A stretch of 64,000 nucleotides of DNA from a virus (Duplodnaviria; Caudoviricetes), in the IMG/VR virus record IMGVR_UViG_3300042363_001420; one strand, written 5' to 3'. Made by a program: the position numbers and the translations under genes. Under the pieces are notes generated by a model that worked only from the letters and a program-made list of their open reading frames with translations, did not search any database and was not told where the DNA came from. This document shows positions 6,409 through 30,075 of the stretch, in pieces. Position 1 is the first letter of the stretch. Every line of letters begins with the position of its first letter.

Positions 6409-7347
6409 TCATTTAGGCATGACTGTGGCCAATGTCTGTCCGCCACGAATGCTGGTTAATTCACCAGGCTTGCGCAATTCTAACCAGGTATTAGCCGAGT
6501 CTATTTTAAAACGCTGCTGCAATTCGAATCCGGCTGACTGTGCGGCTGTTAATACAGCATGCCCTGGTGTGTAGCACATAAAACTTCTTTCGGCTAAGTC
6601 TACTCCGCCGGCTCGATCGCAGTCATTGAATGACATGGCCAACGTACCACCGGGTTTGAGCCTGCTGAAAATTTCCACTATGTAGGCTTGAATAATTTCA
6701 ATAGGTTTAAAATTGAAAAAATAGTAGGCCAGACAAAAAGCAAATTGACCAGTTGGTAAATCTGTCAGTATAGGAGCATCAACTGATTCAGTTACTGCAT
6801 AAGTTCTCAGCCTTCTTTGGTATTGATCGTTGAATCTCAACACAGCAGGATCTAGTAATTTAAGATCAGTATCAACTAGATACAACGGATCGCATCCTAC
6901 CAACAGATTAATCCATTCTTCGTGTCCAGGTCGAATAATCATTCCAGCATGGTGCCAGTCACCGTGTGCTTGTATACGTGCTGTAAGAAATTCTCTAGTT
7001 TCTTTGTCAATTTGGTATCGACGGCTCAATGTGTGTTCTATAGAATCGTACGCAGTCATTTCCTGATATAGTTCAGAGCTTTTGATATAGTAAGACGGTT
7101 CGTGCTGACGAATCATTGTTGTAATATTTTCTTTAACTTCGTCTAATGTTTGATCAATGTCAACTAAACAGTCAAGTACTCGGTTGTACTGTTGTTGTAG
7201 ACGTTCAGTTAAATTAGAGAACTGTAAATCATTGGTCTTGACTGTATGCAATACCGGAGCCAAAGTTTCATGAGCAATAGGCGCAGTATCTAACGGTGTC
7301 ATGTCGTCAAGAATGGCTTTATAAGCAAGAAGAGAACTTAGTTTCAT
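6409..7347 (-). CDS. Class I SAM-dependent methyltransferase-like protein
   Basis: C-terminal FAFCLAYYFFNF...IFSRLKPGGTLAMSFND. Confidence 0.6.
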   Translation of the reverse strand: MKLSSLLAYKAILDDMTPLDTAPIAHETLAPVLHTVKTNDLQFSNLTERLQQQYNRVLDCLVDIDQTLDEVKENITTMIRQHEPSYYIKSSELYQEMTAYDSIEHTLSRRYQIDKETREFLTARIQAHGDWHHAGMIIRPGHEEWINLLVGCDPLYLVDTDLKLLDPAVLRFNDQYQRRLRTYAVTESVDAPILTDLPTGQFAFCLAYYFFNFKPIEIIQAYIVEIFSRLKPGGTLAMSFNDCDRAGGVDLAERSFMCYTPGHAVLTAAQSAGFELQQRFKIDSANTWLELRKPGELTSIRGGQTLATVMPK

Positions 7348-11574: not shown

Positions 11575-12703
11575 TTCTATGCAAGTCGTTGGTTACGCAA
11601 TGAATACCACAGTCCCAGAAATACTTGTGCCTAAACGGAACCACGTGTACTTCGATACCTCGTTTAGCACAAGCTGCTTCAACTTGATCGTTGTGAGTAG
11701 ACACTACAATATTTTTTGGATTTACTATTAAAATGTTAACATCAAAAACAGTTTCCGAAACTTGGCCGACCCACTCATCAAAATAGTGATCTACCATGTT
11801 GATCATGTTGGTATCTTTTTCAAATCCCGGAACAAACCAGCGACCTTTGTTGTGACGCATACTGGATTCAAATTTTCGCATGTGACTGTAATTACTAGGC
11901 GGCAAATAAACAACCTCCCAATCTGGAAATGTGTCAGCATAAGTAGGCACATCATTGAGACTAACAATCAAGCCCGGTGTTATAGGACAATAAACAGCAT
12001 CGCCGTGGCCGCCGGCGTTGACAACATGATTCCGAGTATTGGGGAATAATTCGTTGACCTGATTTAAAATTTCCTGTTTATTGTCGTAGTAGGTTTGTGT
12101 TGCAAAAAATAAATCATTGCCGATCCTGCTAACAAAACAACCGTTGATAAAATCTAGTTCTGTTTTTATAATTTCTGTGCCGCTGTTGTTAATTTTGTCA
12201 AACACATGATTGTAAAAATTTAATTTAGCATCAAGATGCAGTTGATCCATTTGCTTGAATTTTTCAAATTTCTCACTGATTTCCTGCTGAAACTCCGGAT
12301 AGTGATTATAAAAATCCACAGGCCTTACAAAGTCCGGCCACCAGTCCTGTTTGTTCTGACGATAAAATACACTCCAGGCATGGCTGGCATTAGGTACAGA
12401 AGGAATCCAGAATTTGTCTTGAATCATAATAAAATAATCACGCGGAGCCGTTGGTGGCTGCACCCATTTTCCATTGATGTACAGTTCGTTGAGATCGTCT
12501 GGAAACTCCGGTCTCGTGACTTCTACATCAAACTTGTTTAATAATTTTATCAGTGTTTGATAGTCTTCTTCAGTTTCTTCAGCAAGTTTTTCAAATTTTT
12601 TGCGAGTCTTGGAATTCTCTATCCAAGAATAGAATTCAGGAGGGTATGTTTTTCCAACAAGACAAACTTGTAAAGGATCCCAGTGTTGATATACATTATA
12701 CAT
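11543..12703 (-). CDS. Amidinotransferase (glycine/inosamine-phosphate amidinotransferase family)
   Basis: WDPLQVCLVG, PRD, GHGD, FDVNIL and GIHCVTNDL, including the catalytic Cys. Confidence 0.85.
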   Translation of the reverse strand: MYNVYQHWDPLQVCLVGKTYPPEFYSWIENSKTRKKFEKLAEETEEDYQTLIKLLNKFDVEVTRPEFPDDLNELYINGKWVQPPTAPRDYFIMIQDKFWIPSVPNASHAWSVFYRQNKQDWWPDFVRPVDFYNHYPEFQQEISEKFEKFKQMDQLHLDAKLNFYNHVFDKINNSGTEIIKTELDFINGCFVSRIGNDLFFATQTYYDNKQEILNQVNELFPNTRNHVVNAGGHGDAVYCPITPGLIVSLNDVPTYADTFPDWEVVYLPPSNYSHMRKFESSMRHNKGRWFVPGFEKDTNMINMVDHYFDEWVGQVSETVFDVNILIVNPKNIVVSTHNDQVEAACAKRGIEVHVVPFRHKYFWDCGIHCVTNDLHRNGRPQNSISC

Positions 12704-13553
12704 TTTTTATCTTTTTAAAAGTTACAGTAGTTTGATGGTCAACAATGCTTGAGTGATCTTGATTGGTAGGACACTGGCGACACAGTTGATGTGGTTTTCC
12801 GAAATTATTAATAAATTTATTCAAATCTTGCTCAGAACAATTGTTGTCGAGTCCGGCATCGATATAAGGGTTCCATAGGTCATAATTTGGATAATCGTAT
12901 CTTTGCAGCAGCTCCGGCGTAAGACCGACAGTTCCACATTTGTAGATACGACCATTATATAGCAACGGGCAACGCTGTTGTACACAAAAATCAAAAGCTT
13001 CTGCTGGATTATTATTGTGCGGCTGCATATTATGGTACTCGCCTTGAAACGTTTTTAAAAATTGTGTAGGTTTTGCAATTTGAAATCTTAGATTATGTTT
13101 GCGTCCCCACCGCTTAATTCCAAATTCTTCAACCGGTTCCCAATCCCAGGCTGAAAATATCTTCTCTACAACTGAATTGATTCGATCGTCGTTGACATGC
13201 TGACTGATTTTTAATACTGTGTTGCCAAGATCTTGAAGTAGTTCTACAATGTGCCAGTTGCGTTCTAGAAGTAGACCATTGGTGACAAAGCGTATCTGTG
13301 CCGATGGTAATATTTGACGCATACCAATCAACCAATCTGTAATTTGTGGATTAATCAACGGTTCTCCGCCCATTACCCCAATTGCTTGAATTTCTAATCT
13401 CTTAGTCCAAGGTTCAAGCCAATTCTTGCCCTGGTCCCAGGTTGTATACCCGGAATATTTTAAATCTGAAAATGTAGTACATCCCTGGCAACTCAGATTG
13501 CAGGTTCTAATTATCAATATTTCTAAGAAGGGTAGTATAGGAAGTTGATTCAT
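12696..13553 (-). CDS. Radical SAM protein
   Basis: CNLSCQGC (CxxxCxxC), MGGEP, VTNG, C-terminal Cys cluster (GRIYKC, CRQC). Confidence 0.9.
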   Translation of the reverse strand: MNQLPILPFLEILIIRTCNLSCQGCTTFSDLKYSGYTTWDQGKNWLEPWTKRLEIQAIGVMGGEPLINPQITDWLIGMRQILPSAQIRFVTNGLLLERNWHIVELLQDLGNTVLKISQHVNDDRINSVVEKIFSAWDWEPVEEFGIKRWGRKHNLRFQIAKPTQFLKTFQGEYHNMQPHNNNPAEAFDFCVQQRCPLLYNGRIYKCGTVGLTPELLQRYDYPNYDLWNPYIDAGLDNNCSEQDLNKFINNFGKPHQLCRQCPTNQDHSSIVDHQTTVTFKKIKNV

Positions 13554-14770: not shown

Positions 14771-15474
14771 GATGTTCTGATTTTAGCTAACTTCAGCCAA
14801 GACAAAGTTTTAATCCAAAACCAACCGATGTCAAATTCCCACCACATGCGACTCAGCTTGGGATTGGCTGCATCCAAATGATGGTTATTATGTAATTCCT
14901 CACCGCCAATGACAATACCCCAGGGTATTAAATTGGTACTGCAATCCTTAGAGTCGCCGTTTCTGTATCCCCACCAATGTCCTAATCCGTTGACTACACC
15001 TGCTGCCCAAAACGGAATCCAAGCCATTTGCATCAGCCACATAACAATACCCCATCCATTAAACAAGGCAGTTTCGATGATCAGCAACAACAAGACACCT
15101 ACTACGCTGTAGCGACTGTAAACGTTGCGTTCCATCCAGTCGTTGGGTGTGGCATAGCCCAGTCGATCAACCATTTCTTGATCTTTAGAAGCTGAATTAT
15201 ACAACCAAGCACCGCCTAGCAACACACGCCAGATGCCGTGTATATGTGGACTATGAGGATCTCCAACTCGTTCACATTTTTGATGGTGTAATCTATGTAC
15301 CGCTACCCACTCTTTAGTGACCATGCCTGTGGTCAACCATAGCCAAAAACGCATCACATGTGATACTGTAGGATGCAGTTCGACTGATCTGTGTGCTTGA
15401 CTACGGTGTAGGAATATAGTCACTGACAATATAGTCAAGTGAGTCATTATTAAAACCAAAATTAATTCTGTCAT
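14764..15474 (-). CDS. Membrane fatty acid desaturase (delta-9 type)
   Basis: His boxes HRSQAH, HRLHH, HNNHH; WEFDIGW. Confidence 0.93.
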   Translation of the reverse strand: MTELILVLIMTHLTILSVTIFLHRSQAHRSVELHPTVSHVMRFWLWLTTGMVTKEWVAVHRLHHQKCERVGDPHSPHIHGIWRVLLGGAWLYNSASKDQEMVDRLGYATPNDWMERNVYSRYSVVGVLLLLIIETALFNGWGIVMWLMQMAWIPFWAAGVVNGLGHWWGYRNGDSKDCSTNLIPWGIVIGGEELHNNHHLDAANPKLSRMWWEFDIGWFWIKTLSWLKLAKIRTSP

Positions 15475-15812
15475 TTTCCGTCCTTGGCTAATCGAGCACC
15501 TTTGTTGAAACTGGGGCTATAGGGACTGTTGCCTTCTACACCGCCACGGGCCTTGCTCCAAGCATAGCCAGCACGATGCCCCGAACAGTCTTTGGTACAC
15601 TGACTGCCCAAGAATTTTAGTTCGTCCAATTGAGCCCGGGTCCACTCGTCGGGAATTGTTCCATGTTTTTCCACAAACAAATCGTGCAATTTTTTAGCAG
15701 TAATACCATGCTCACGAGCAATGGTCTGCATCATGTGATCTATTGCATCATAACCGGTTGGATTTTTTAGATCTTTTTCCAATGCGCCCACTGCAAATTC
15801 TGCAGCTCTCAT
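15471..15812 (-). CDS. Putative internal head protein (MRAAEF leader)
   Basis: Shared N-terminal leader; CTKDCSGHRAGYAW. Confidence 0.6.
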   Translation of the reverse strand: MRAAEFAVGALEKDLKNPTGYDAIDHMMQTIAREHGITAKKLHDLFVEKHGTIPDEWTRAQLDELKFLGSQCTKDCSGHRAGYAWSKARGGVEGNSPYSPSFNKGARLAKDGK

Positions 15813-16036
15813 CTAGCGCCTTTAAACCATAACTTGAACCATTCTTCAGTTCCAGGTTTAATGTTATGCTGGCGTTGTATTACACCGCAGTTGGTGTCTT
15901 TAATATTAGGTAGGCTCATACGTTTAGCTTCTCGTGCTGCTAAATTGTTGTATATAGGATCATCAGGCGGCATCACACAATCGGGCTCTGTGGAATAACT
16001 CAAATCAGTAGTTGAAAAACAAATTCGATCAATCAT
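15809..16036 (-). CDS. Hypothetical protein; start revised to MIDRI
   Basis: ATG follows GAGGA right after the upstream stop; C-terminal NIKPGTEEWFKLWF. Confidence 0.6.
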   Translation of the reverse strand: MIDRICFSTTDLSYSTEPDCVMPPDDPIYNNLAAREAKRMSLPNIKDTNCGVIQRQHNIKPGTEEWFKLWFKGAR

Positions 16037-16037
16037 G

Positions 16038-16445
16038 TTAATCCTCAATAGGGCCACCTTCAACCCAAGCTGAACAAGTGCGCTTGGCAGCACATTTAAA
16101 TTTTAAAAACTTGCAGTAGCCCAAGGTACCAGCGTCGATTGTGTCAGCAGGGTCGCTACTGGGCTCGCTGCCAATACCCTTGGCAATACAGTCCTGCATT
16201 TTCTGCGTGATATCAAATGCTGCACAGTTGCCGCAACGAGCTGACTTAGCTGATTCGGCATCATCCATGTTCCATTCTGCTGCAATTCGACTCCAGTATT
16301 CTTTGTTGGGTTCATTGGGATCAAGAGGGCCATACATATATTCATCTATGGCCTTTTTTCTATTGCGCAGATTCAAATCGATACTCTGAGTTGCCGATGG
16401 ACAACCCTGCTCAACAGCTTCTAACAAATTTAATAAATCTCTCAT
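16038..16445 (-). CDS. Cys-rich putative internal head protein (MRDLLNLLE leader); start revised
   Basis: RCGNCAAF...GYC...FKCAAKRTCSAW; ATGA coupling with the upstream ORF. Confidence 0.65.
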   Translation of the reverse strand: MRDLLNLLEAVEQGCPSATQSIDLNLRNRKKAIDEYMYGPLDPNEPNKEYWSRIAAEWNMDDAESAKSARCGNCAAFDITQKMQDCIAKGIGSEPSSDPADTIDAGTLGYCKFLKFKCAAKRTCSAWVEGGPIED

Positions 16446-16582
16446 TCGGCTCTCACTTGTTTGACGGCATCTGACATCATTTTTCTTGCCTGTGTCCAAC
16501 TTGCAGCAAGAAATGTAAATTCAACAGATTCCGTTACACCCGTCGAATTGGCTACTGGTAACCAAAATTTAAACTGTTTCAT
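16442..16582 (-). CDS. Small hypothetical protein, 46 aa (not in ORF track)
   Basis: MKQFKFWLPVANSTG...QVRAE; AGGAG upstream; stop overlaps the next ATG. Confidence 0.6.
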   Translation of the reverse strand: MKQFKFWLPVANSTGVTESVEFTFLAASWTQARKMMSDAVKQVRAE

Positions 16583-16606
16583 AACCTGCTCCTTTTATTA
16601 TTTTTA

Positions 16607-16678
16607 TTACACAGGGCTATAAGGATTTCTTTTTTGATCTGAATCAATTGGTACTTCCGGATACACTGGATAATCCAT
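16607..16678 (-). CDS. Candidate 23-aa micro-ORF MDYPVYPEVPIDSDQKRNPYSPV
   Basis: TAATG coupling to the upstream stop; fills the gap. Confidence 0.4.
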   Translation of the reverse strand: MDYPVYPEVPIDSDQKRNPYSPV

Positions 16679-16914
16679 TATCGACAAATCCTTACATTAC
16701 GGTAAGTGCGATAATAAGAGTCCCAACGCTGTGTCCAATAGCATGTGGGCTGACGATAGTAAATAGGCGGCGCAGGTCTATAGTACACAGGTGGTGCTAC
16801 ATACACCGGGCGAGGTTGTACATAAACCGGTGCAGATGGCACATAATAAGGTGTGTAAGCTACACAACCCGAAAGGCCAATTGCGGCAACTGCTGCTATC
16901 AGGATTCTTTTCAT
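16678..16914 (-). CDS. Pro/Tyr-rich lipoprotein
   Basis: Signal peptide with lipobox LSGC; PVYV repeats. Confidence 0.75.
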   Translation of the reverse strand: MKRILIAAVAAIGLSGCVAYTPYYVPSAPVYVQPRPVYVAPPVYYRPAPPIYYRQPTCYWTQRWDSYYRTYRNVRICR

Positions 16915-17078
16915 TTGATATTTCGACTCTTTGATCGTTTGGGTGCTGCACTTTCTTTAGGCACACAGTTGGGCACAGTACGGCCACCTTTCTTTTTGGT
17001 GCCTGCTCTTCGATAGCCAATCCAACAGGAATCTGCGGCAACTTCATTCAATGCAGAAAATAGTTGATTTAGTCTCAT
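16911..17078 (-). CDS. 55-aa basic putative internal head protein (not in ORF track)
   Basis: MRLNQLFSALNEVAADSCWIGYRRAGTKKKGGRTVPNCVPKE...; stop overlaps the next ATG. Confidence 0.7.
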   Translation of the reverse strand: MRLNQLFSALNEVAADSCWIGYRRAGTKKKGGRTVPNCVPKESAAPKRSKSRNIK

Positions 17079-17096
17079 AATAGTTTATTATACCAA

Positions 17097-17501
17097 TTAT
17101 TTTGTTTTGCTTGCAACATTTCGTGCAGCACCCTGGCGATCGGGATTCTTGTCTTTGACACGTTTGCGTCGTACTGCTGCTGCTATAGCACTCTTACCAC
17201 CAGACGCACGTAGGCTGGCAGCACGACTCTTGCTTAGACACTTGGGTTTGCCTTCGCCGGGTTTACGATCTCCGCATTTGCCAATTCTTTCGCCTTTGGT
17301 GTTGTATCTATCCCAACCACCGCCTCCAGCACCACCACCTTTGCCTGTACCAAACCAGTCGCGTAGATTTTCTGCTAGGTCTTCGTTTTTGTTGCGACCG
17401 GCACAATGCGCTTTTTGGCTAAAGCCCTTGGGATTGGAGCAGTTGATGCTGCTCTTGTATTTTTTACTCCACGCCTCGGCTACGAATTCATCGGCTCTCA
17501 T
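17097..17501 (-). CDS. Basic putative internal head protein (MRADEFVAE leader); start revised
   Basis: ATGA coupling; modules WSKKYKSSINCSNPKGFSQKAHC and LRDWFG...KPKCL. Confidence 0.7.
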   Translation of the reverse strand: MRADEFVAEAWSKKYKSSINCSNPKGFSQKAHCAGRNKNEDLAENLRDWFGTGKGGGAGGGGWDRYNTKGERIGKCGDRKPGEGKPKCLSKSRAASLRASGGKSAIAAAVRRKRVKDKNPDRQGAARNVASKTK

Positions 17502-18607
17502 TTTTTGCTCTTGTTGCCCCAGTTGGCAGCACCCACCTTTCGGCATTTTACCAAAGCTCCGGATGCATAAGCACTGGGCCAAATCTTGTAGCGACTTTTT
17601 ACTTTGTTATAGCAGGCGTCTTTGCCGGCTTCGTCGAGGTAGTCGGCCGATTCTGTCTGAGTACGACGTCGTGCGCAGTACATTTCACAGGCCATGACAG
17701 CTTCGTCCAAGTTGTTAAACTTGCTGTTGGCTGTTTTGTTTTTGATCGACACACGGAACCCGTCGTCTTCGTTGCCGTGGATCTGTATTTCATGTCCGTC
17801 ATCTGTGGTCACAGTTTTGACTGGTGGACCCATTTGATCACCAGGTGCCTTAGCTGCCAACTTGTCTATCAGATCAGGATCTTTTTTAATCTCTTTGCCG
17901 ATGTCGCTCAAGTAGTCTCCTAATCGAGCTTTTAGTTTAGTGATGATATCTTCTTTGGTGATATCTTCTTTGAATATCCAGCCGGGTGGTGGAGTTTTTG
18001 TTACATAGTGACTAGCTATATTATCACCTTGTATAACAACCACCTTGTACTCGCCTTTGGCATTGGGACCTGTTACGCTTTGAATACGTTTTTGGAAATC
18101 ATGTGAGTCTTTGCTGGGATCTGATCCCATAGTTGTAGTTAAAGTCCGATCACTTTTTATAGAAGTATCATATCCAGATGTTCCCCAGCTGGGATCAAAC
18201 TTGTCAGTGGTTTGAGCTTGGGCGCCGCCGCCGAACGCAGCAGCACCAGCAAGAACGGCACCTGCTACTTTCTGCTTTATACCTTCTTCAACGCTTTCAT
18301 CATAGTGCCCGGGCTGTGCTTGGGCTTCTTCGTAACCGGCCATCCACTGTGCATGCTCAGCTGTGCCGGGCTTGTACGGACATGCAGTTTCGTCTTGCCC
18401 GGCTCGATGACCAGCACGCCAGCCTTGATCATAAGGATCTTTGCTGCTGATACTTTCGTTGGCGCCCACAGCATAACCAGTCATAGGATGACGAGGATCT
18501 GTGGGGCTGTTTAATACGCTTATTTTTTTCGGACGGAACATAGCAGGCAGCTGCGGAACCGAACGTTGTTGTTGATTAAGAGACTCTAAAAGTTGATTTA
18601 TTCTCAT
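17498..18607 (-). CDS. Modular putative internal head protein containing an RMF-like segment
   Basis: MRINQLLES leader; YDQGWRAG...ACPY...WMAGYEEA; C-terminal DACYNKVKSRYKIWPSAYASGALVKCRK. Confidence 0.65.
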   Translation of the reverse strand: MRINQLLESLNQQQRSVPQLPAMFRPKKISVLNSPTDPRHPMTGYAVGANESISSKDPYDQGWRAGHRAGQDETACPYKPGTAEHAQWMAGYEEAQAQPGHYDESVEEGIKQKVAGAVLAGAAAFGGGAQAQTTDKFDPSWGTSGYDTSIKSDRTLTTTMGSDPSKDSHDFQKRIQSVTGPNAKGEYKVVVIQGDNIASHYVTKTPPPGWIFKEDITKEDIITKLKARLGDYLSDIGKEIKKDPDLIDKLAAKAPGDQMGPPVKTVTTDDGHEIQIHGNEDDGFRVSIKNKTANSKFNNLDEAVMACEMYCARRRTQTESADYLDEAGKDACYNKVKSRYKIWPSAYASGALVKCRKVGAANWGNKSKK

Positions 18608-19044
18608 GCTCGATCTTCTTTCAAAAATGATTTCAGCATCCAGCCGTGCTTGCCTTGTGCATCAATGCGTCCAGCTATAAAATCTGCAATGCCCTGTTGG
18701 TTTTCTTGTTCGGCACTGGCAAAACACTGGTTCAACAGGTCAATTAACACCAGATTGTCTTCTAGCAGTTCCTGCAGCATAAGTCTGGCTCGCGGCACTT
18801 TGATTTGCCCCGAAATTAAACTGAGTTCTTGAAAACGTTCAAAAGATCCTGGTGTATATTCTTCTAATATACGAATGTATTCGGCAGTGGCATCAATTGC
18901 TTCGTTTACTTCTTCGTAGATTTTGCCAAAGAACTTGTGAAGCTGGCCAAAGTACATTCCTTCTACATTCCAATGAAAGAATTGAGCTTTGATTACAAAT
19001 GCGTATTGTGTGGCCAATAATGTCTTTAGATCATCTGCGAGCAT
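18604..19044 (-). CDS. dps: Dps / ferritin-like DNA protection protein; start revised to MLADD
   Basis: KAQFFHWNVEGMYFGQLHKFFGKIYEE...DATAEYIR...KHGWML. Confidence 0.92.
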   Translation of the reverse strand: MLADDLKTLLATQYAFVIKAQFFHWNVEGMYFGQLHKFFGKIYEEVNEAIDATAEYIRILEEYTPGSFERFQELSLISGQIKVPRARLMLQELLEDNLVLIDLLNQCFASAEQENQQGIADFIAGRIDAQGKHGWMLKSFLKEDRA

Positions 19045-19201
19045 CAGGATTACTTCCTTTATAGGTATTACGATATTTAGCTGGTCTAACACTTTGTGTT
19101 CTTGTTATTAAACCGCCCAGAGGAACAGCAACAGCAGCAACACTACCACTAGAAGTTGCGCCAGCAGAAGCTGTCTCTCGAATGAATTCACGTGCTCGCA
19201 T
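19031..19201 (-). CDS. 56-aa putative internal head protein (MRAREFIRE leader; not in ORF track)
   Basis: Manual translation MRAREFIRETASAGATSSGSVAAVAVPLGG...DARR. Confidence 0.7.
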   Translation of the reverse strand: MRAREFIRETASAGATSSGSVAAVAVPLGGLITRTQSVRPAKYRNTYKGSNPDARR

Positions 19202-19484
19202 TTGTTATCTCCACTGTTTCATTGTCGATCCAACGGCCTGGACCGTGATCAATAGTGCGATTTTCGACACGAATTTTTCCGGTCTTTTTATGTAGAGGTT
19301 TAAGCTGTATCTTGTATTGACCAGGCGGTGCAGATATCTGCAGCATTTCAGAAAGATATTCGTCTCGCCAAATATAAGTTCGTTCAACAAACAATTCGTC
19401 GTTGACAAAAATCCTGTACACCGGCGGAGTATCACGCCAACTACAGTAAACATCAAATTTAATTTGTACGAATTCTGTTTGCAT
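19188..19484 (-). CDS. Hypothetical protein; start revised to MQTEF
   Basis: PPVYRIFVNDELFVERTY; TAAATA 5 nt upstream of the ATG. Confidence 0.65.
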   Translation of the reverse strand: MQTEFVQIKFDVYCSWRDTPPVYRIFVNDELFVERTYIWRDEYLSEMLQISAPPGQYKIQLKPLHKKTGKIRVENRTIDHGPGRWIDNETVEITNAST

Positions 19485-19530
19485 AGTGATATTTATCAAA
19501 AAGTACGTCTATTAATATCACTGCAACCAA

Positions 19531-19740
19531 TTACTTGATTTTGACTTCGCGCGGTTGTCCGATTATTATACCAGGTACGTTGTATTGAACTTGTACTATC
19601 TTGCGAGCCATTTGCGGATTTACAGCCATGACAGTAGTAAAGGTATTGGTATTACTGCCTCCTAGCACCGGGATACGAATACGTATCTCATAAGTCTTGA
19701 GCTTGGATTTCTTAGGCTGTGCTATTTCTTGTAGTCGCAT
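19531..19740 (-). CDS. Putative internal head protein (MRLQEI leader); start revised
   Basis: TAAATA 4 nt upstream of the ATG; shared leader. Confidence 0.65.
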   Translation of the reverse strand: MRLQEIAQPKKSKLKTYEIRIRIPVLGGSNTNTFTTVMAVNPQMARKIVQVQYNVPGIIIGQPREVKIK

Positions 19741-19751
19741 GATGTATTTAG

Positions 19752-20345
19752 TTATATTACCCAAGGATCCACAATGACTGGAGTTTTGCCACGTCGCATG
19801 ATATTACCAGAATGTAGATCAAAGGACCAACCGTTTCTTTCGCCGGTTAGGTATACTTGTCGAATAGTAGCAAACAATATTTTCATTGCATCTGCTCCTA
19901 ATTGTTCTTTCAGTTTTTGATAATAAAAATAACCCTCGAGCTGTTTATCTAATTGTTTGAAGTTTCGAATACCATTATGTTCCACGGAATCTGCTATTTC
20001 TGACAAGGTATCGCCCATGTAGCCAGCTGGTTTCAGGGCTTCCTGTCTGATTTGTAAATAACGATCACCGTCTAACACAAAGCTCTCGTATCCGCTGAAC
20101 TTTGGCAAGAATGGATTTGTGCTGTTTTTTATGCAGTACTTGGCCCAAGCAAAGAACATCTTATGATCACGACTGAATGATTCACCTCCTTGTGTGCCAA
20201 ACACCTTGAGCACAAGGCCAGTACTGGGTTCTAAATAAGCAGTTTGATCAACACCGGCACCTAGACGTTTGTAACCCTTGTCTTTTAAGATACGGTCGAT
20301 CTTTTTATCAGTTGTACTGAATTCTGTTAGTTCACTTGCTCTCAT
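19752..20345 (-). CDS. Protein kinase-like enzyme with MRASELTE leader
   Basis: Gly loop LGAGVDQTAY, VLKVF, catalytic loop DLHSGNIM, IVDP. Confidence 0.8.
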   Translation of the reverse strand: MRASELTEFSTTDKKIDRILKDKGYKRLGAGVDQTAYLEPSTGLVLKVFGTQGGESFSRDHKMFFAWAKYCIKNSTNPFLPKFSGYESFVLDGDRYLQIRQEALKPAGYMGDTLSEIADSVEHNGIRNFKQLDKQLEGYFYYQKLKEQLGADAMKILFATIRQVYLTGERNGWSFDLHSGNIMRRGKTPVIVDPWVI

Positions 20346-20905
20346 TTCTTTTTACCTGACTTCATATTAGCACACCAATGATACATTCGGGCACGTTCAC
20401 CGCTTGCTGCTTTGGCTCGTTTGCGTAAGCTGGTAACTGATCCGTTGCAACTGGCACCGGCACGTTTCACACGCCCAGGGCGACTTCGACCTTTGACCTT
20501 GCCATCGGCAAAGTTTTCATTCAAAGATGTGTTTAAGAACTGTTCGCCTTTGCCTGTGACATACCAATAACCATCGTCATCTACAATATAACCATTGCTG
20601 CTTAAACTATCAAGCACATGGTCGTAAGCAGCAGTACGCGATTCGTCTTCCTGAAAATCCATACCCAGTTGTGCAGCAGTGTAGATGGCATGTAGCACTA
20701 GAATTTTACCCAGTCCTTGACTTTGAAATTCGGGAATAATCTCGGCAATGCTACGTCCCGTGTCGGCATTGTATTGATATACACCAGCTGGTTTATTGTT
20801 GACAGTTAAAGTAGTGGCAAATTTATTTTTACCTTTTTGTACTTTGAAACTAATCTTGTCTTGACCATCGGCAAAGTTTTCAGTTATAAATTCACTAGCT
20901 CTCAT
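20342..20905 (-). CDS. GNAT acetyltransferase module inside a basic protein with MRASEFITE leader
   Basis: Acetyl-CoA motif IIPEFQSQGLGKILV; ENFADG occurs twice. Confidence 0.7.
   Translation of the reverse strand: MRASEFITENFADGQDKISFKVQKGKNKFATTLTVNNKPAGVYQYNADTGRSIAEIIPEFQSQGLGKILVLHAIYTAAQLGMDFQEDESRTAAYDHVLDSLSSNGYIVDDDGYWYVTGKGEQFLNTSLNENFADGKVKGRSRPGRVKRAGASCNGSVTSLRKRAKAASGERARMYHWCANMKSGKKK
20502..20882. repeat. 18-bp direct repeat CCATCGGCAAAGTTTTCA (20502-20519 and 20865-20882) flanking the GNAT domain
   Basis: Exact match 363 nt (121 codons) apart; encodes ENFADG. Confidence 0.9.
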
Positions 20906-23900
20906 CGTTGTCCCATCTCCGGATATACTTCTACAGTATCATCAAACCTGGTTCGTTGGGCCCAATCACGTGCCACACGATTGGCAGCAGCTTGATCAGT
21001 GCTACGTAACACAAACGTATGTAACACTTCTCCTGTGGCTCCGCTGACAATTTTCCATCGTCCAGTGAACTCGCCGCCAGTTTGTGTAAAGTTCTGTGCT
21101 ACCTGGGGTTCAAGTTCTTCTGGATTTCTAGCAGCTGGAAAATTCTGAGGTTCTGTCTCAATTGGCGGTGTTGCACGTAATTCTTCAGGAGATAACGACT
21201 CTATACTGTCCAAATAAACTGATCTGCGTTCCATACCACGTGCCTCGGTCCAACGACGTGCTGCATTGATTGCGTCTCCGGTGGTTCCGGCACTGAATCT
21301 ATACAGTATAGGACCCACACCTTCGTTGCCTTCTCTACGTCTTAACACAAAATTGCCACGAGGATCGTCTGGTACCGGTGCATTGAGTTGATCAGTTGCC
21401 GGAGTCTGTGTAGCAGGCGCAACTGGTTCTGCACGATAAGCATCATCGGGATTCATAGTATCGTTGTATTCTTGCTTGGCCAGTTTGATAGCTTCTTCTG
21501 CTGTTGTGGCCATGAGTGTAATCGTGGCACGTCTATTGGGGTGCGTTACTTTCCACTGAATCTTTTCCGTCGGTGGATTTTTAGCAACTTCGCGACCGTA
21601 CTGTAGCTGCTTGAGAAAGCCTTTGAGTTCTGACTTGGGCAGGGCACCAGCCACATAACGACTGAAGATACTGATGGCATCATTGTCATTTTTGCCTTTT
21701 ACCTCAGTGCGTTTGCGTCCAGTTTTGGGATCCGTTACTTGTTCAGTTTCCGTACGGGTCAACAGCTTGTACAACTTCTTAGCATACTCAGCCTTTTCTG
21801 CAGCAGGATCCATGGCAATGTCAGTGGCTCTAGCATAGCGCATGAGTGTGTTCTGTATCTTGTCCATGTCCGCAAAATAGTCACTGCCACCAGCTGAACG
21901 GAATTCAATGTAGTTGCTTTTGGGATTGATACTGGTATACTTGCCGAAACCGCCAGGCTGTGCGATGGCTCTGGAAGCAAATTGATTTAAATGGTTGCGC
22001 ATAGCCGACAACACAGCGTCGGCTCGAGTTTCAGTGGCTTCAGTCAAGGACTTGCCCATGCTATCGCGAATCTTGCTGATGGCACTCTTGGCGTAGGTGT
22101 TGGCTTCACGACCAAACTGTTTCAACACATATTCATCACCTAGGAACAGGGCCAACTTGGTATAATCCAGCACATTCTCGCCATGATCCGGCATGCTGAC
22201 ACTCATGTGGAAACCAGTTGAGTCATTGGCATAGGCACCGTTGTCTTTGGCCCAGGCAAAGAATCGAGGCAAGATTTCTAAGGCTTCGCCCAAGGGCATA
22301 GGTGGACTCACAATCTCCACTGGCATGTTGGCATCATCATCGGCTTCTAAACTGCCATCGGGTTCGAAGATCCAAGTACTGGTGTCACGTCGAGCACCGT
22401 GATAACCCGTGCTGACAGTGGTTGTAACATCTAACTTATCTGCCAAGTCATCAGCTAACTGTTGTGCTGCATCTTCGTTAAATCCACCTTCAGAGCTGCC
22501 ACCTGACATGGTCATGTGTGGCCATGTGAAATCAAAGTTATAAGATAAATCGCTCATGTTGCGCCAACCGCGATCACGCAACCAGTCGCTTTCATCCTTG
22601 TCCCAGTTTTCTCTAAATTCGTCTAAAGCACTTTCGTAATCGCTGTTGTGTTCTTCTATGGCCAGTTCTACACGTTCATCCAGTTGTCGCTCAACTTCTC
22701 GTTCGGCACTGACATATTCTTCTACCAATTCAAGATCGGCAGCAGTACCAGTACCCCTGACCCGTCGTTCCATGGCTGCTAATATTTCTTTCACACGGTC
22801 TTCGCTGTATTCATCATCTAACGCACGTTCAATAAGGTCCTCTTCGTCCCAGTCGTTTTCTTGAATCCATTCACGTACAGCAACAGGTGCATCAAACTCA
22901 TCATACAGAGTCTGGTCATACCATTCCATCCAGTCTTCTTCTAATTCGTTTCGTTGACGCCGAGACAAACCCTCGGCAAAATCACCTGAGCCGAAAAATT
23001 CTTCGATGTCGTTGATGCTGTTGGCACGTGGATCATAGCTGTAGTCAGACTCCCATTCGCCTTCTTCCTCGTTGGCTCCAAGTCCAGTAAATATCAACTC
23101 AGCTTCAAATCCAGCCATCATGCTCTGCCCAATATCGCTGGCGGCAAAGGCCTTCAAGGATCCTGGGCTCATGGCCACTTCTTCTAGATCTTGTTCGCTG
23201 ACCAAGGGAAAGCCCAAGCCTTCTTTGACTGCTTGTAGTTTTCGAGTAAGTGCTTCAACAAGTCCATTTGTCTTGGCAGTGGGGGGTGTGCCAGCAGGAT
23301 TGGTCTTCCATCCCATCTTGGCTGCTTGACGTTGATTCTCACCTGGCTTGATATCTACAGTGAGTGCCATGCTATAGCGTGGGTCTCGTGCTTCTCGATT
23401 GTTCACAGGAATGTATCCCGACGCTTCGTTGATCTGTTTACCGAAGTATTCGGGATGCAGTTCTGCAAAATCACGCATGATTACGCCAGCTAAGGCATTG
23501 GCTTCATTTTCGTATTCGCTGCCGGTTTCTCCGGCATTAACTGGCATTGTGGCCTTTTCGGCTTGACGGTGATGTGTTAGTTCATGCGCAGCCGTACGCA
23601 AGATATCTAAGGGATGTCGTCCGGCTACGCTCAATATGAGTGTATCTTCGTCGGGCATGTATCGACCGAATGTGGCATTACGTTCGCTCCAAGCCGGATC
23701 CTGCTTGAGTCGAATTTTAGGAATTGCTTGTAATTGTAATTTTTCAGCGCAAAACAATACAAAATCTTGTACGGTTTGATCGATTGACAGTTCGGCGGAT
23801 TCCCTGACACTTTCGCCACCACCACCGCCATCACCACCGTCGGTGGCAGCATCAGTTTGACCGTAGTAGTGATAGCCGGGAAAGAATACTCCACCAAATG

Positions 23901-24648
23901 AGCCGTAACGCATTTTCTTCTTGCGTTTCTTTTTCTTTTCGGTCAGGCTCAAGGCTTGATTTTTGGCTGCTAATCTAGCTGCACGTAAACGATCCAAGGT
24001 GCCGTTACTGCGCAGCACTTTGAATGCCAGGTTCTCCGGTCCAAATTCTCCTGATGCATCTAGACCTGCTTGTCGAAATGATCGCAACTTCTTACTTACT
24101 GCATCCATCTGTTCGAGGTCGCCCGACTCGATGGCAGCATCAATTCTCTGACCTATATCTTCGTACTTGCTGCGCACACTGATGTCATTGATGTCAGGTT
24201 TACGACGTTTCGGAACACTTATCCATTCATTGTTAATCACACTGTAAATGCCTTGGCTTTTGGGTTGTTCGTTGGCATTTTGAACATATAGTTCTACATC
24301 ATATCCACCAATCTTGAAATTGTGTTGATCGTTGTATTGATATTTTTTAGCATCGAACAGTTCGCGATATACATCACTAACATCAGCTCTGGGTATATCA
24401 GCTACCAAGTGTAGGTCAATATCACTGTGACCCGTGTAGGTGTAAGCAGCATTGCTGCCGCTGATAGTGATGTCTTTGACTTCAAGATCCAGGCCTAGGA
24501 ATTCTTTAAAGTCTTCGGCAATAGCTAGGAGTTTTTCGCGCACTTCGGGCAGCAGATGTTCATCCTGCCCCCAGAGTCTGGGATTCAGTGTTCGGTGGAA
24601 TTTCACGGCGTCGCTGAGACGATAGTTTTGTAATTCTTTGATGTCCAT
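20902..24648 (-). CDS. 1248-aa multidomain protein: Pol-beta-type nucleotidyltransferase, HExxH metallopeptidase and putative amidoligase (COOH-NH2 ligase)
   Basis: ISGSNAAY...SDIDLHLV; AAHELTHHRQ...ENEANA; GFEAE...EPDGSL...EIVSP...STGFHMSVS...KYTSIN...IEFRSAGG. Confidence 0.8.
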   Translation of the reverse strand: MDIKELQNYRLSDAVKFHRTLNPRLWGQDEHLLPEVREKLLAIAEDFKEFLGLDLEVKDITISGSNAAYTYTGHSDIDLHLVADIPRADVSDVYRELFDAKKYQYNDQHNFKIGGYDVELYVQNANEQPKSQGIYSVINNEWISVPKRRKPDINDISVRSKYEDIGQRIDAAIESGDLEQMDAVSKKLRSFRQAGLDASGEFGPENLAFKVLRSNGTLDRLRAARLAAKNQALSLTEKKKKRKKKMRYGSFGGVFFPGYHYYGQTDAATDGGDGGGGGESVRESAELSIDQTVQDFVLFCAEKLQLQAIPKIRLKQDPAWSERNATFGRYMPDEDTLILSVAGRHPLDILRTAAHELTHHRQAEKATMPVNAGETGSEYENEANALAGVIMRDFAELHPEYFGKQINEASGYIPVNNREARDPRYSMALTVDIKPGENQRQAAKMGWKTNPAGTPPTAKTNGLVEALTRKLQAVKEGLGFPLVSEQDLEEVAMSPGSLKAFAASDIGQSMMAGFEAELIFTGLGANEEEGEWESDYSYDPRANSINDIEEFFGSGDFAEGLSRRQRNELEEDWMEWYDQTLYDEFDAPVAVREWIQENDWDEEDLIERALDDEYSEDRVKEILAAMERRVRGTGTAADLELVEEYVSAEREVERQLDERVELAIEEHNSDYESALDEFRENWDKDESDWLRDRGWRNMSDLSYNFDFTWPHMTMSGGSSEGGFNEDAAQQLADDLADKLDVTTTVSTGYHGARRDTSTWIFEPDGSLEADDDANMPVEIVSPPMPLGEALEILPRFFAWAKDNGAYANDSTGFHMSVSMPDHGENVLDYTKLALFLGDEYVLKQFGREANTYAKSAISKIRDSMGKSLTEATETRADAVLSAMRNHLNQFASRAIAQPGGFGKYTSINPKSNYIEFRSAGGSDYFADMDKIQNTLMRYARATDIAMDPAAEKAEYAKKLYKLLTRTETEQVTDPKTGRKRTEVKGKNDNDAISIFSRYVAGALPKSELKGFLKQLQYGREVAKNPPTEKIQWKVTHPNRRATITLMATTAEEAIKLAKQEYNDTMNPDDAYRAEPVAPATQTPATDQLNAPVPDDPRGNFVLRRREGNEGVGPILYRFSAGTTGDAINAARRWTEARGMERRSVYLDSIESLSPEELRATPPIETEPQNFPAARNPEELEPQVAQNFTQTGGEFTGRWKIVSGATGEVLHTFVLRSTDQAAANRVARDWAQRTRFDDTVEVYPEMGQR

Positions 24649-24662
24649 CTTGTATTTACCGG

Positions 24663-24696
24663 AAAAAACAAAAGCCCTATAATAGGGCTTTTTGTT
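24663..24696 (-). terminator. Intrinsic terminator
   Basis: AAAAGCCCTAT/ATAGGGCTTTT stem followed by a T tract. Confidence 0.75.
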
Positions 24697-25593: not shown

Positions 25594-26433
25594 TTATAGG
25601 CCGACAGATTTTTCTTCGATATAGTCTGAGTCAATAATTACAGAATCTACAGAAGTTGTTGTAGTATTGCCAGCCAAACGATCTACAACATCACGTATTT
25701 CGCCAACAACCAAAGATTGTGCTTGTGCAAAGTCCTTGTTCTTGATACAATCAACTAAAGTTGATAAATGCTTGCTGAGATCAGCTACCATAGAACGTTC
25801 CGAGTCGTTGCTGAACATGCTGCCAGTTTCAACTTCTTCTACAGTTTCTTTGATTTCTAAAACACTGTTAAAAATTTCAATCAGTTTATTGGTGGCTGCT
25901 GCATTATTGGCAGCACTAGGATAAATGGTTTTGATTAAACCGGCCTTTTGTTCCGGTGTCATTTCCGGCCACTTGGCACGTATTTCTGTAGCCGACGTCA
26001 TACCTGGTCCGAACTGCGACACTGGCAAGTAAGCCATATAACCGTGTTGGCTCATTGGTGCCAATCCAGTTCTCTTGTAAGGTTGTAGATACGCAGGTTC
26101 GCCGTTTTTCTTAATGCCACCAGGTTTGGGATTTTGATCTTGATCCTTTTCGCTGCGAACAAAAATTAATTGTGTGTCGGCAGGATCGTAGATCTGAGTA
26201 ATTTCTTCGGCACTAAAAGGACTTTTAACCTGGATGAATCTATTGGCAGGGACACCAGCTGCTTGTGCCAGCATCTTTTTAAGATTGAACGGAAAAGGTC
26301 TTGTGGCTGTGTCGGCAGTGGCTGCAACAAATACATCAGCTGAAGGAAATGCTGCTTGAGCAGCATGATACAATGCAGTGTGTCCTGCATGCCAGGGATG
26401 AAATCCGCCGGGCATAATAACTAATTTTTTCAT
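25594..26433 (-). CDS. HxGH cytidylyl/nucleotidyltransferase-like protein
   Basis: IMPGGFHPWHAGH and SATEIR motifs. Confidence 0.8.
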   Translation of the reverse strand: MKKLVIMPGGFHPWHAGHTALYHAAQAAFPSADVFVAATADTATRPFPFNLKKMLAQAAGVPANRFIQVKSPFSAEEITQIYDPADTQLIFVRSEKDQDQNPKPGGIKKNGEPAYLQPYKRTGLAPMSQHGYMAYLPVSQFGPGMTSATEIRAKWPEMTPEQKAGLIKTIYPSAANNAAATNKLIEIFNSVLEIKETVEEVETGSMFSNDSERSMVADLSKHLSTLVDCIKNKDFAQAQSLVVGEIRDVVDRLAGNTTTTSVDSVIIDSDYIEEKSVGL

Positions 26434-27044: not shown

Positions 27045-27812
27045 TTAATTTCCTGAGGAATAGTTAGTTGAATTATTTACCTCTACTATCGGCATAGTTT
27101 TACGTATGATACCCGACTTGATCAATTCCAGCATTACAATCTCAGTAGCGTTATTATGATCAATAAAATGACTTCTCTGCAGCCACGGCAAAGAACTCAG
27201 GCACCATCTTTGTAACGCAGGACTTAATCGCCAGTCAGACTGGGAAAACAAATACTCACTGAGTGAACGATGTTCACTGTCTGTTATGCGACTGTCATTG
27301 AGATATGTTCGATAGCGATGCGAGCTTTTTCGTAGAGATATTGTATTTTTTTGGCGTACAACGTTTGCTTGAAAAATATAATTGGTATTAAGATAAGGTT
27401 TTTTTATTAAGGAATTCAATAAATCAATGTCGTTGCTGTATATATATCCGCTATCTCCTGATACAATTAGCTTGACTTGACGTTTGTATAAAAATAACAG
27501 TTCTGCTAAATCAGCTAAATTTTTAGTGCAGTCATTTATAAAATCATCACAATCAATATCGTTGTCTTTTGGAATCTGCAATGACTGATGAGCAAACCAT
27601 TGTCGCCAACGCATTCTGCGTCCGTAGCGTTTTTTTACTTCGTTGAGAGTTTGAGATAGAGTTAAATTCTCTTTTACTATTGTTCTAAGACACCAAAAAT
27701 GCAACATTCCGAAACTAACGCCGTAAGAATACTGATCATAAAATAATCGATCAGTATTCTTTTGTTTTATTTTAACTTCTGGGTTTAAAGCGATCAATGA
27801 CGATAAATCCAT
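27045..27812 (-). CDS. Hypothetical protein; start revised to MDLSS
   Basis: Long ORF overlapping the clpA end. Confidence 0.6.
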   Translation of the reverse strand: MDLSSLIALNPEVKIKQKNTDRLFYDQYSYGVSFGMLHFWCLRTIVKENLTLSQTLNEVKKRYGRRMRWRQWFAHQSLQIPKDNDIDCDDFINDCTKNLADLAELLFLYKRQVKLIVSGDSGYIYSNDIDLLNSLIKKPYLNTNYIFQANVVRQKNTISLRKSSHRYRTYLNDSRITDSEHRSLSEYLFSQSDWRLSPALQRWCLSSLPWLQRSHFIDHNNATEIVMLELIKSGIIRKTMPIVEVNNSTNYSSGN

Positions 27813-30075
27813 TATTATCCACTGTTGGTAAATTAACAGAAGGAGCTGTAGCAACATCGCTGATCAAGCTCAATTCTCCATCAACTACATCTGCTGAAAT
27901 ACTGCAGTCGTGCAGTTGATTGAACAGAATTTTTTTACTGAGTGGAACTCTAATTAATTGGTCGATTTTACGTCCTAGAGGTCTAGCACCCATCTTGCTG
28001 TCATATCCTTGTTCCGCCAATAGTTCAACGGCTGCTTCTGTAAGATTTAATTTGATATTCTTTGCGTTTAAACTCTGACGCAATTCATCTACAAACTTTA
28101 CAACTACCTTCTTGATACTCAGCATGTCAAGTTTGTTAAACTTACAGACCAAATCAATTCGGTTACGTAATTCTGGTTTAAAGAATTCTTTCATAGCACG
28201 ATCTTCGCTGCCTACACGCTCGAGCTCTTGTCCGAAACCAATGTTGTTGTTTTCGTTGTCTCTGGCACCCAGGTTAGAAGTCATGATCACAATGGTATTT
28301 TTGCAGTCTACAGTTTTGCCGTTACTGCTGGTAATACGTGCTTCGTCTAACAACTGTAATAAAATGTTTGTAACGTCTGGATGAGCCTTTTCGATTTCGT
28401 CAAACAACAAGATGCTGAAAGGATTTTTGCTGATATCGCTGATAAGTTTGCCGCCGCCGAGATTACCGTCTTCGAATCCAACATAACCCGGGGGAGCCCC
28501 AATAAGACTGGAAACTGTGTGACGTTCTTGATATTCGCTCATGTCGTACTTTAACAAAGTCATGTCTAGATTCTGACTCAGTAATTTGGCCATCTCGGTT
28601 TTACCTGTACCAGTAGGGCCAAGAAACAAGAAACTGGCCATGGGACGTTTTTCATTACCGATACCAGCAAAACTGATGTAAACACGTTCTAGAACCTGGT
28701 CGACTACGGCATCTTGTCCGTAAAGTTTTTGTTTGATATTGGTTTCTAGGTCAGCAATTCTATGACTATCATTGCTGTTGCTGGTATTGTTTAAACGATC
28801 CATAGGAACACCAGTGACTCTACTGACTTGCTGCATAATAAGATCTGCTGTGACAGTAATAGTACCAGCATCTTTCACACGTTCTCTAGCACAAGCAGCG
28901 TCAATCAAGTCAATTGACTTGTCGGGATTCTTTTTGTCAGTTAAAAATCTTGTACCAAGTGATACAGCAGTTTCGATTGCATCAGTATCGATCATAACGT
29001 TATGGAACTTCTCTAGCCGCGGACTTAGACCGATTAAGATTTTTTCTGTGGTTTCTGCATCCGGTTCATCTACTGCCAAACGATAAAATCTGCGCATCAG
29101 CGCACGATCCTTTTCAAAACTTTCGTAGTATTCTTCCCAGGTAGTGCTGGCAATGACCTTGAGATAGCCTTTGGTAATAGCCGGCTTCAACATGTTAGCA
29201 AAGTCTAGGGTAGATGATCCAGAAGCTCCGGCACCGCGCATGGTATGTGCTTCGTCAATGAACAACACACAATTTTTCTTAGCTTCTAATGCAGCTAGTA
29301 CTTGTTTAATTTTTTCTTCGAATTCGCCGCGATATTTTGAACCAGCCAACAAACTGCCAATTTCTAAACTCCAAACTTCATTGCCTTTAAGGAATTCTGG
29401 AATTTGGCCAGTGCTAATGCGTTGTGCTAGTCCGTCAATGATGGCAGTTTTACCAACACCGGGTTCACCTACCATCAGCACATTGGCCTTGAATCTACGA
29501 GCCAAAACTGTAACCATTTCTTCAATTTCTGTTTCTCTGCCAATCACTGGTTCTAATCGATCTTCGGCTGCTAAACGGGTAATGTTGGTGCAGTATTCCT
29601 CCAATACTTCATTGGCTTGCTGCGTGTCAAGAGTGTAGCTGTTGGCGCTGTAATTTTTCTCCCAGAAATGTACAAATTCTGCTTTGGTCACTCCATATTT
29701 TAACAAAAAGTATTGAGCATGGCTGTTGCTTTCACCCATAATAGCCAGGTATAGATCAGCAGTAGTTACAATTCTGCGGCCAGTAAACAAGACCTGTGTT
29801 AGAGCACGATTAAACACCCGTTCCAAGGCATTGGTTTTTCTAGGTGTTATATCTTTGTTGGTTTTAGTGAGATGGTCCAAAGAATCTAAATACCTCGAAA
29901 CATCTACTTGCATGTGGGTTATATCAGTACCAAACTTTTCCAGCACAGCTCGAAATGGTGCATGAGTGATCATGGCCATTAACAGATGTTCAGTTAACAC
30001 ATATTCATGCCGACGTTCTTTGGCAATCCTAACTGCGTCTTCGATAATTTTTTCAATCTCAGGGTTGTTCTGCAT
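27772..30075 (-). CDS. clpA: ATP-dependent Clp ATPase, ClpA-like
   Basis: Clp N domain (EHLL), two AAA modules GEPGVGKT/FIDEAH and GPTGTGKT/LFDEIEKAH, IGF ClpP-docking loop. Confidence 0.95.
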   Translation of the reverse strand: MQNNPEIEKIIEDAVRIAKERRHEYVLTEHLLMAMITHAPFRAVLEKFGTDITHMQVDVSRYLDSLDHLTKTNKDITPRKTNALERVFNRALTQVLFTGRRIVTTADLYLAIMGESNSHAQYFLLKYGVTKAEFVHFWEKNYSANSYTLDTQQANEVLEEYCTNITRLAAEDRLEPVIGRETEIEEMVTVLARRFKANVLMVGEPGVGKTAIIDGLAQRISTGQIPEFLKGNEVWSLEIGSLLAGSKYRGEFEEKIKQVLAALEAKKNCVLFIDEAHTMRGAGASGSSTLDFANMLKPAITKGYLKVIASTTWEEYYESFEKDRALMRRFYRLAVDEPDAETTEKILIGLSPRLEKFHNVMIDTDAIETAVSLGTRFLTDKKNPDKSIDLIDAACARERVKDAGTITVTADLIMQQVSRVTGVPMDRLNNTSNSNDSHRIADLETNIKQKLYGQDAVVDQVLERVYISFAGIGNEKRPMASFLFLGPTGTGKTEMAKLLSQNLDMTLLKYDMSEYQERHTVSSLIGAPPGYVGFEDGNLGGGKLISDISKNPFSILLFDEIEKAHPDVTNILLQLLDEARITSSNGKTVDCKNTIVIMTSNLGARDNENNNIGFGQELERVGSEDRAMKEFFKPELRNRIDLVCKFNKLDMLSIKKVVVKFVDELRQSLNAKNIKLNLTEAAVELLAEQGYDSKMGARPLGRKIDQLIRVPLSKKILFNQLHDCSISADVVDGELSLISDVATAPSVNLPTVDNNGFIVIDRFKPRS

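Follow-up and report, generated by a model that had tools for sequence, protein, structure and literature searches.

In bacteriophage T4, a capsid targeting sequence is the only thing common to otherwise diverse internal proteins; it loads them onto the scaffolding core, and the prohead protease gp21 cuts propeptides of 10-20 residues off the internal proteins, Alt, gp23 and gp24, as described in two articles (PMC5694885, PMC3012670). In phiKZ-like giant phages such as SPN3US, many head-loaded proteins are trimmed by a gp21-related protease at x-x-Glu (PMC5694885, PMC7411985). Multi-domain effectors predicted or known to accompany the DNA have been described as polyvalent proteins (Iyer et al. 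2017, PMC5512222), and the Dar proteins of phage P1 are a further example. Here we analyzed a 64 kb window from an uncultured giant (jumbo) phage of the T4 superfamily (IMG/VR record IMGVR_UViG_3300042363_001420), in which a co-oriented run of minus-strand genes at 15471-24648 encodes proteins with a shared N-terminus. The shared N-terminus was found on nine proteins and is a portable tag resembling the T4 signal. On sequence grounds, it is probably the T4-type capsid targeting and cleavage leader of this lineage.

The original prediction had named ten such N-termini, and all ten were confirmed at their minus-strand starts. A canonical or near-canonical form, MR..E followed by F, L or I, was present at six starts (15812, 17501, 19201, 19740, 20345 and 20905), and a Leu-rich variant of the MR...L..LxE type at three (16445, 17078 and 18607). 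The tenth, MDIKEL at 24648, had only Glu5-Leu6 in common with the leader. It was tried as a degenerate tag and rejected, since it has neither Arg2 nor hydrophobic-x-Glu, and since the N-terminal region of this protein of 1248 amino acids (aa) aligns with stand-alone cyanophage NTases and belongs to the NTase family region. The set of about ten leader carriers was thus reduced to nine. The consensus of the tag was MRAxEF[ILV]xE, besides the Leu-rich variant, and the gp21 cleavage motif (L/I/V)-x-Glu ended the leader in all tagged genes except the one at 19740 (eight of nine).

Enrichment was calculated by Fisher test over all six-frame ATG starts with at least 40 codons downstream, inside versus outside 15471-20905. 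The strict motif was found at 6 of 60 starts inside and 0 of 593 outside (p = 4.8e-7), and the loose motif at 9 of 60 inside and 1 of 593 outside (p = 2.4e-9). When the first 12 residues were trimmed and the ten bodies were compared pairwise, the best match reached only E = 0.07, which upheld the claim that the bodies are unrelated.

The products of T4 ipII and ipIII (NC_000866) start with MKTYQEFIAE, which has the EFIxE core and the terminal Glu, as part of a hydrophobic-x-Glu end, in common with the tag. The likeness to the T4 IPI/IPII/IPIII/Alt tag (Mullaney and Black 1996, as cited in PMC5694885 and PMC3012670) also extends to its nature: in both, 9-12 N-terminal residues are shared by unrelated proteins, most of them small and basic. 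In related genomes of the lineage, the head module likewise includes a Gp20 portal, an S77 protease, a scaffold and Gp23, and the tagged genes lie in a variable region outside the head cluster, as the T4 ip genes do. Intermediate tags were found on small cyanomyovirus proteins encoded between terS and terL, on S-CRM01 g33, and on two genes in the terS-terL interval of the closest related genome (G005), beside a conserved pair with the canonical tag. Differences from T4 were also observed. The tag has Arg2-Ala3 where T4 has Lys2-Thr3, and it is one residue shorter. Its cargo covers dozens of families (kinase-like, GNAT, NUDIX, NTase, ADP-ribosyltransferase (ART), ParB, HiPIP-like), whereas T4 has only a handful, and includes chains with repeated cut-site-like joints and a shared basic Cys tail, known here from sequence.

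The other systems differ more. SPN3US-type propeptides are long, often more than 100 residues, without a short shared tag, and the polymerase and capsid of those phages are unrelated to those of the lineage studied here. Polyvalent proteins have a domain repertoire overlapping that of the tagged proteins (ART, ParB, GNAT, peptidase and amidoligase-type modules; PMC5512222), but they are packaged via MuF or portal fusion, and the Dar proteins by DarA-dependent loading, in neither case with a short cleavable N-terminal tag; the 1248-aa polyvalent protein of the window is itself untagged. The distribution of the tag over unrelated bodies also has an analogue outside phages. Encapsulin cargo-loading peptides are short and portable and send unrelated enzymes inside an HK97-fold shell, an analogy only, as they are C-terminal and uncleaved, attach directly to the shell protein and involve neither DNA nor injection.

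In contigs collected through body homology, the same tag was present on orthologues and on other bodies. One of these contigs (L002) is syntenic with the window, with an orthologue 88% identical. We also searched IMG/VR with a 27-nt degenerate pattern of the tag, which matched at least 120 loci; the counts that follow are among the 120 loci listed. An open reading frame (ORF) of at least 40 codons followed in 143 of the 144 matches listed. The same pattern gave only 56 matches when 596 Gb of cellular genomes were searched, and several of these were clearly on phage contigs in metagenome-assembled genomes, which points to a tag specific to viruses. The loci contained 229 ORFs starting with MR..E[FLI], and their bodies belonged to at least 61 unrelated families, with Pfam domains that included ART, amidoligase, ParB_N, deaminase, sigma-70 region 4 and peptidoglycan-binding. 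The commonest tagged family, accounting for 110 of the 229 ORFs, had no relative among isolated phages. Single bodies, such as the HiPIP-like domain and a basic module of the CW.GY type, were found with differing tag variants or with none.

Selection on the tag was assessed with 86 ORFs from which the search seeds had been left out. At positions that the pattern did not constrain, Ala3 was present in 62%, [LIV]7 in 71% and Glu9 in 56% of these ORFs, and conservation was nil from position 10 onward. Synonymous codons were mixed at every tag position (AGA, CGA, CGT and CGC for Arg; GCA, GCC and GCT for Ala; GAA and GAG for Glu) while the residues were constant. Pro at position 10 was absent from 187 sequences against about 11 expected, a figure weakened by family redundancy. 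Of the 432 genes of G005, 7 carried the generalized tag, whereas shuffled N-termini gave an expectation of 1. The unrelated bodies, the mixed codons and the fixed residues bear out the earlier proposal that the leader is a portable unit, and indicate that it is selected at the protein level.

No match was obtained when the cluster was compared by megablast with 50,697 phage records. The lineage was placed by a T4-type DNA polymerase (PolB) at 7347-10004. Its identity was 47-50% to the enzymes of Agrobacterium phage Atu_ph07 and Sinorhizobium phage Phosso, and 64-81% to those of five IMG/VR genomes (340-525 kb, 98-100% complete). Each of these five sister genomes encodes a T4-type portal, a Gp23 capsid protein and exactly one gp21-type prohead protease (Peptidase_S77). 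The protease was also found in three tag-bearing contigs that are 54-73% complete and was missing from only two contigs, which are 27-35% complete; all eight related genomes at least 54% complete have it together with the T4-type portal, scaffold and Gp23. In G005, the genes follow the T4 order: Gp20 portal, small acidic genes, S77 protease, a scaffold-sized gene and Gp23. The T4-like leader ending in hydrophobic-x-Glu is thus found in a lineage that, in its sister genomes, has a T4-type head module with a gp21-type protease, in agreement with the original prediction.

One tagged protein resembles the capsid protein itself. The 56-aa protein at 19031-19201, tag included, aligned with residues 37-57 of the G005 capsid protein (E = 6e-6; gene at L164 13560-14465, minus strand), and its L002 orthologue (L002 9404-9559) aligned with the same protein at E = 4e-7. 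In a six-frame search of three sister genomes with the 56-aa protein, the capsid N-terminus was the sole match besides the orthologue. Leu-x-Glu is kept immediately before the copied segment in all six capsid proteins. We observed that the 51-65-aa family to which this protein belongs combines the tag and a basic tail with a near copy of two elements of the major capsid protein, its predicted maturation site and its mature N-arm; the family could serve as a docking peptide or as a protease decoy. The Gp23 gene of G005 (193248-194465; L164) is split into pieces of 301 and 89 aa, whereas it is a single frame of 391-405 aa in five sister genomes; the split is probably an assembly frameshift.

The features of the cluster, from its upstream end, are as follows.
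24652-24692, minus strand: strong terminator-like hairpin (24692-24670) and then, 3 nt 5' of the ATG at 24648, TAAATAC (24658-24652); putative late-type start of the transcription unit
20902-24648, minus strand: 1248-aa NTase/amidoligase polyvalent protein; first gene of the unit, no canonical leader
20342-20905, minus strand: 187-aa protein with canonical leader, GNAT-like domain between two ENFADG joints, and basic two-Cys tail
19752-20345, minus strand: 197-aa protein-kinase-like cargo (T7 gp0.7-type PHROG, E = 1e-7); leader one residue shorter, ending L-T-E
19531-19740, minus strand: 69-aa basic protein with the first six leader residues; TAAATAC 3 nt 5' of the ATG
19031-19201, minus strand: 56-aa protein with canonical leader, copy of the predicted capsid maturation site and of the mature N-arm, and basic tail
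18604-19092, minus strand: Dps/ferritin-like gene without leader, in mid-cluster, translationally coupled to the 369-aa tagged gene
17498-18607, minus strand: 369-aa multi-module protein; Leu-rich leader, sub-threshold RMF-like stretch, C-terminal basic two-Cys module
17097-17501, minus strand: 134-aa basic four-Cys protein; canonical leader ending V-A-E
16911-17078, minus strand: 55-aa basic two-Cys module (CW.GY...VPNC type); Leu-rich leader variant
15809-16914, minus strand: interspersed untagged small genes of 94 aa (15809-16093) and 46 aa (16442-16582) and for a 78-aa lipoprotein-signal protein (16678-16914)
16038-16445, minus strand: 135-aa acidic 7-Cys protein, HiPIP-like by annotation in relatives; Leu-rich leader ending L-L-E
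15471-15812, minus strand: 113-aa basic protein with leader; longer propeptide with an A-L-E end at residues 10-12

The cluster had been described as an enzyme arsenal, which overstated its content. Two of the nine tagged proteins are enzyme-like: the kinase-like protein, by its PHROG match, and the GNAT protein, named from close homologues. The GNAT domain of the latter reached only E = 0.011 in Pfam, and its identity comes from 85%-identical homologues that are named GNAT, some of which match GNAT models. The other tagged proteins are small basic two-Cys modules belonging to PHROGs of unknown function, the HiPIP-like protein, a protein with an RMF-like module, and the capsid N-arm mimic. In the predicted cargo list, the kinase-like, GNAT and basic Cys modules stood, whereas the RMF-like stretch stayed below the threshold (23.7 bits, cut-off 27.9). 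Sequence searches of the PDB with the GNAT-like and kinase-like proteins, and with a clamp-like protein encoded elsewhere in the window, gave no match. Several unrelated effector domains in one polypeptide, as in polyvalent proteins, were present only in the untagged 1248-aa protein, in which residues 14-235 matched an NTase family PHROG and residues 729-869 matched Amidoligase_2.

The modules of the cluster recur in other arrangements. The body module of 15471-15812 is found within cyanomyovirus terS-terL polyproteins, and the first module of 17097-17501 stands behind a T4-like leader in cyanomyoviruses as well; the L002 orthologue of the latter protein has an additional insert of about 105 aa. 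In 16038-16445, homology to other phages begins only at residue 15. The CW.GY module of 16911-17078 is a separate gene with a canonical leader in three other contigs (L003-L005), and in L002 it is inside a polyprotein. This polyprotein, the 535-aa L002 orthologue of the 369-aa protein (L002 10001-11608), has additional modules connected by GVAE joints: three GVAE-G/A joints lie between modules, and one of them stands before the module that L003-L005 and the window encode as a tagged gene of its own. The GVAE joint occurred 24 times in 120 related proteins, against less than one expected. We also observed that in cyanomyoviruses one long protein of the terS-terL interval strings together small modules that are separate tagged genes in the window.
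L176 1841-4015: S-SCSM2R_117, cyanomyovirus module-chain protein
L177 1862-3412: S-CRM01 g34, cyanomyovirus module-chain protein

In the 187-aa protein, ENFADG stands directly behind the tag and again behind the GNAT domain, and the L002 counterpart is a 66-aa form without the enzyme domain. In the 3,564 database relatives of the 187-aa protein, the tag and the same basic Cys tail flank a GNAT, NUDIX, NTase, ParB or other domain. The tail itself (20342-20500; ending ...HWCANMKSGKKK) is present in thousands of database proteins, in which the middle domain before it is interchanged (GNAT, NUDIX, NTase, ParB, DUF6934 and others). We tentatively suggest a three-part cargo grammar for this lineage and many aquatic T4-like phages, a possibility on which we would not rely. 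It would consist of an address tag, of protease-cuttable joints (the tag end, ENFADG and GVAE-G) that allow cassette exchange, and of a basic two-Cys tail that holds the cargo to the DNA so that both are ejected together; the 56-aa protein would be a new head component that docks at N-arm sites or tunes the protease.

The close resemblance of the tag to the T4 capsid-loading signal suggests that the nine proteins probably enter the head and are injected along with the DNA. While the head is being assembled, the tag would bind the scaffolding core and bring the attached protein into the prohead, where a gp21-type protease would remove it after the Glu at position 8-12. The mature cargo would stay with the DNA and be delivered into the next host cell, possibly acting before any phage transcription. 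This cargo would be mostly small basic two-Cys modules, accompanied by the kinase-like enzyme, the GNAT enzyme, the HiPIP-like protein and the capsid N-arm mimic. Cargo genes may be split, fused and swapped exactly at the joints because the tag and its cut site would form one short cassette.

Several observations weigh against a capsid targeting leader. The searches of isolated phages found no cultured phage carrying the exact tag, and the head genes and protease were read in sister genomes, not in the window's own genome. The isolates nearest by polymerase (Atu_ph07, Phosso and a Vibrio jumbo phage) encode the S77 protease, but their tag counts did not exceed the control level, and they are therefore no model for the tag. 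The tag of the gene at 19740 is not followed by a Glu cut site. The Leu-rich variant looks like ordinary N-terminal helices and is weakly specific; a similar Leu-rich N-terminus was seen on the presumed clamp-like replication gene at 5593-6324 (minus strand; no PDB sequence match), a caution that this variant alone should not be taken as a tag. The capsid cut site is predicted from the motif, and in the BLAST alignment it falls downstream of the known gp23 site of T4, by about 11 residues. The cluster adjoins replication and DNA-modification genes instead of forming part of the head module; a position outside the head genes is, however, shared by the ip genes of T4. Finally, a sigma-70-like promoter lies 5' of 17078, so that some of the genes may also be expressed early.

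The shared N-terminus might be only a footprint of recombination and translational coupling, in which short homologous 5' ends (ATGAGAGC...) serve cassette swaps and ATGA coupling and the peptide is no address. Six of the ten starts are ATGA stop/start overlaps with the upstream gene, AGA is the most frequent Arg codon of the tag, and cassettes are gained or lost exactly at the tag, as in the 66-aa and 187-aa forms and the duplicated ENFADG. We consider this explanation unlikely, because synonymous codons vary at each tag position while the residues are fixed, because ATGA coupling needs just an A at +4, and because the likeness reaches T4 and cyanophages without DNA identity. Such a footprint would also be compatible with a capsid targeting leader, not exclusive of it.

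The tag may instead be a handle for another phage factor, either a degron for a ClpA-like AAA+ unfoldase or a site for an assembly chaperone that times or localizes proteins in the infected cell. A 767-aa protein with Clp_N and double AAA domains (ClpA/ClpB-like) is encoded 7 kb from the cluster (27772-30075, minus strand), and the tag is short, N-terminal, portable and degron-like. A handle of this kind would leave unexplained the identity of the tag core with that of the T4 head-targeting tag, the tag end that follows the prohead-protease rule, and the copy of the capsid maturation site, and in G005 tagged genes lie between the terS-like and terL genes. We regard it as distinctly improbable.

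It is very improbable that the proteins are diverged paralogues with an ancestral N-terminal helix, or that the likeness arose by chance. Amphipathic N-terminal helices are common, and the Leu-rich variant is weakly specific, but the bodies differ in fold and in family (kinase-like, GNAT, HiPIP-like, ART, amidoligase, ParB and others), the enrichment in the window has p = 4.8e-7, and the excess of tagged genes in G005 over shuffles does not fit either explanation. A recognition or modification site of a radical-SAM enzyme, in the manner of ribosomally synthesized and post-translationally modified peptides, is scarcely credible and was rejected for want of genomic linkage. In L002, a radical-SAM-like gene (7170-8078) does follow the polyvalent gene, directly upstream of the first gene with a tag, and it has a paralogue in the window at a different position (12696-13553, minus strand). 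However, a homologue of either protein was found in only 1 of the 120 tag-bearing loci listed, the one syntenic with the window, an ORF with CxxxCxxC near the N-terminus in just 9 of them, and the tag lacks the Cys, Ser or Thr pattern typical of such substrates.

Because the principle of a capsid targeting leader is textbook T4 biology, the mechanism is not new, in contrast to the scale, the cargo and the lineage. Should the tag function as it does in T4, the injected proteins of many uncultured freshwater and marine giant phages would be readable from sequence. Tagged proteins would then act before any phage gene expression and would be prime candidates for counter-defense and host takeover, and thousands of database proteins would receive a first functional label (3,564 matched one tagged protein alone). 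Under the cargo grammar, thousands of "hypothetical" virome proteins would be injected effectors. The tag and joint sequences make cargo evolution by cassette exchange visible, and a T4-like tag would be a short peptide of natural origin with which foreign proteins could be loaded into large capsids.

Several genes of the cluster had been placed behind TAAATA late boxes. This held for one tagged gene, at 19740 (TAAATAC at 19744-19750, 3 nt before the ATG); the remaining boxes precede the polyvalent gene at 24648 and an untagged gene at 19484 (TAAATAT at 19489-19495, 4 nt before the ATG). In G005, TAAATA[CT] was located 3-6 nt before the ATG of the portal gene, the gp67-position gene, the terS-like gene and other genes, further morphogenesis genes among them, and in the window it was also present upstream of tail-fibre-like genes at a larger distance. 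Over the whole window, TAAATA showed no enrichment (24 copies on the minus strand, where base composition predicts about 44), and only the 3-6-nt spacing stands out. As a motif, this placement fits late expression. If TAAATA[CT] is a late promoter box, these transcripts would have little or no 5' untranslated leader.

Just upstream of the cluster, an untagged gene at 25594-26433 (minus strand) encodes a cytidylyltransferase/NMNAT-like protein that starts with GGFHP.H.GH; NMNAT-like proteins have been reported from several cyanophage virion proteomes (PMC9602691). The HiPIP-like domain of 16038-16445 was also seen as the C-terminal half of a 244-aa protein in the unrelated Actinomycetia phage DSL-LC01 (L191 1156-1890), where the gene lies directly upstream of the capsid maturation protease gene.

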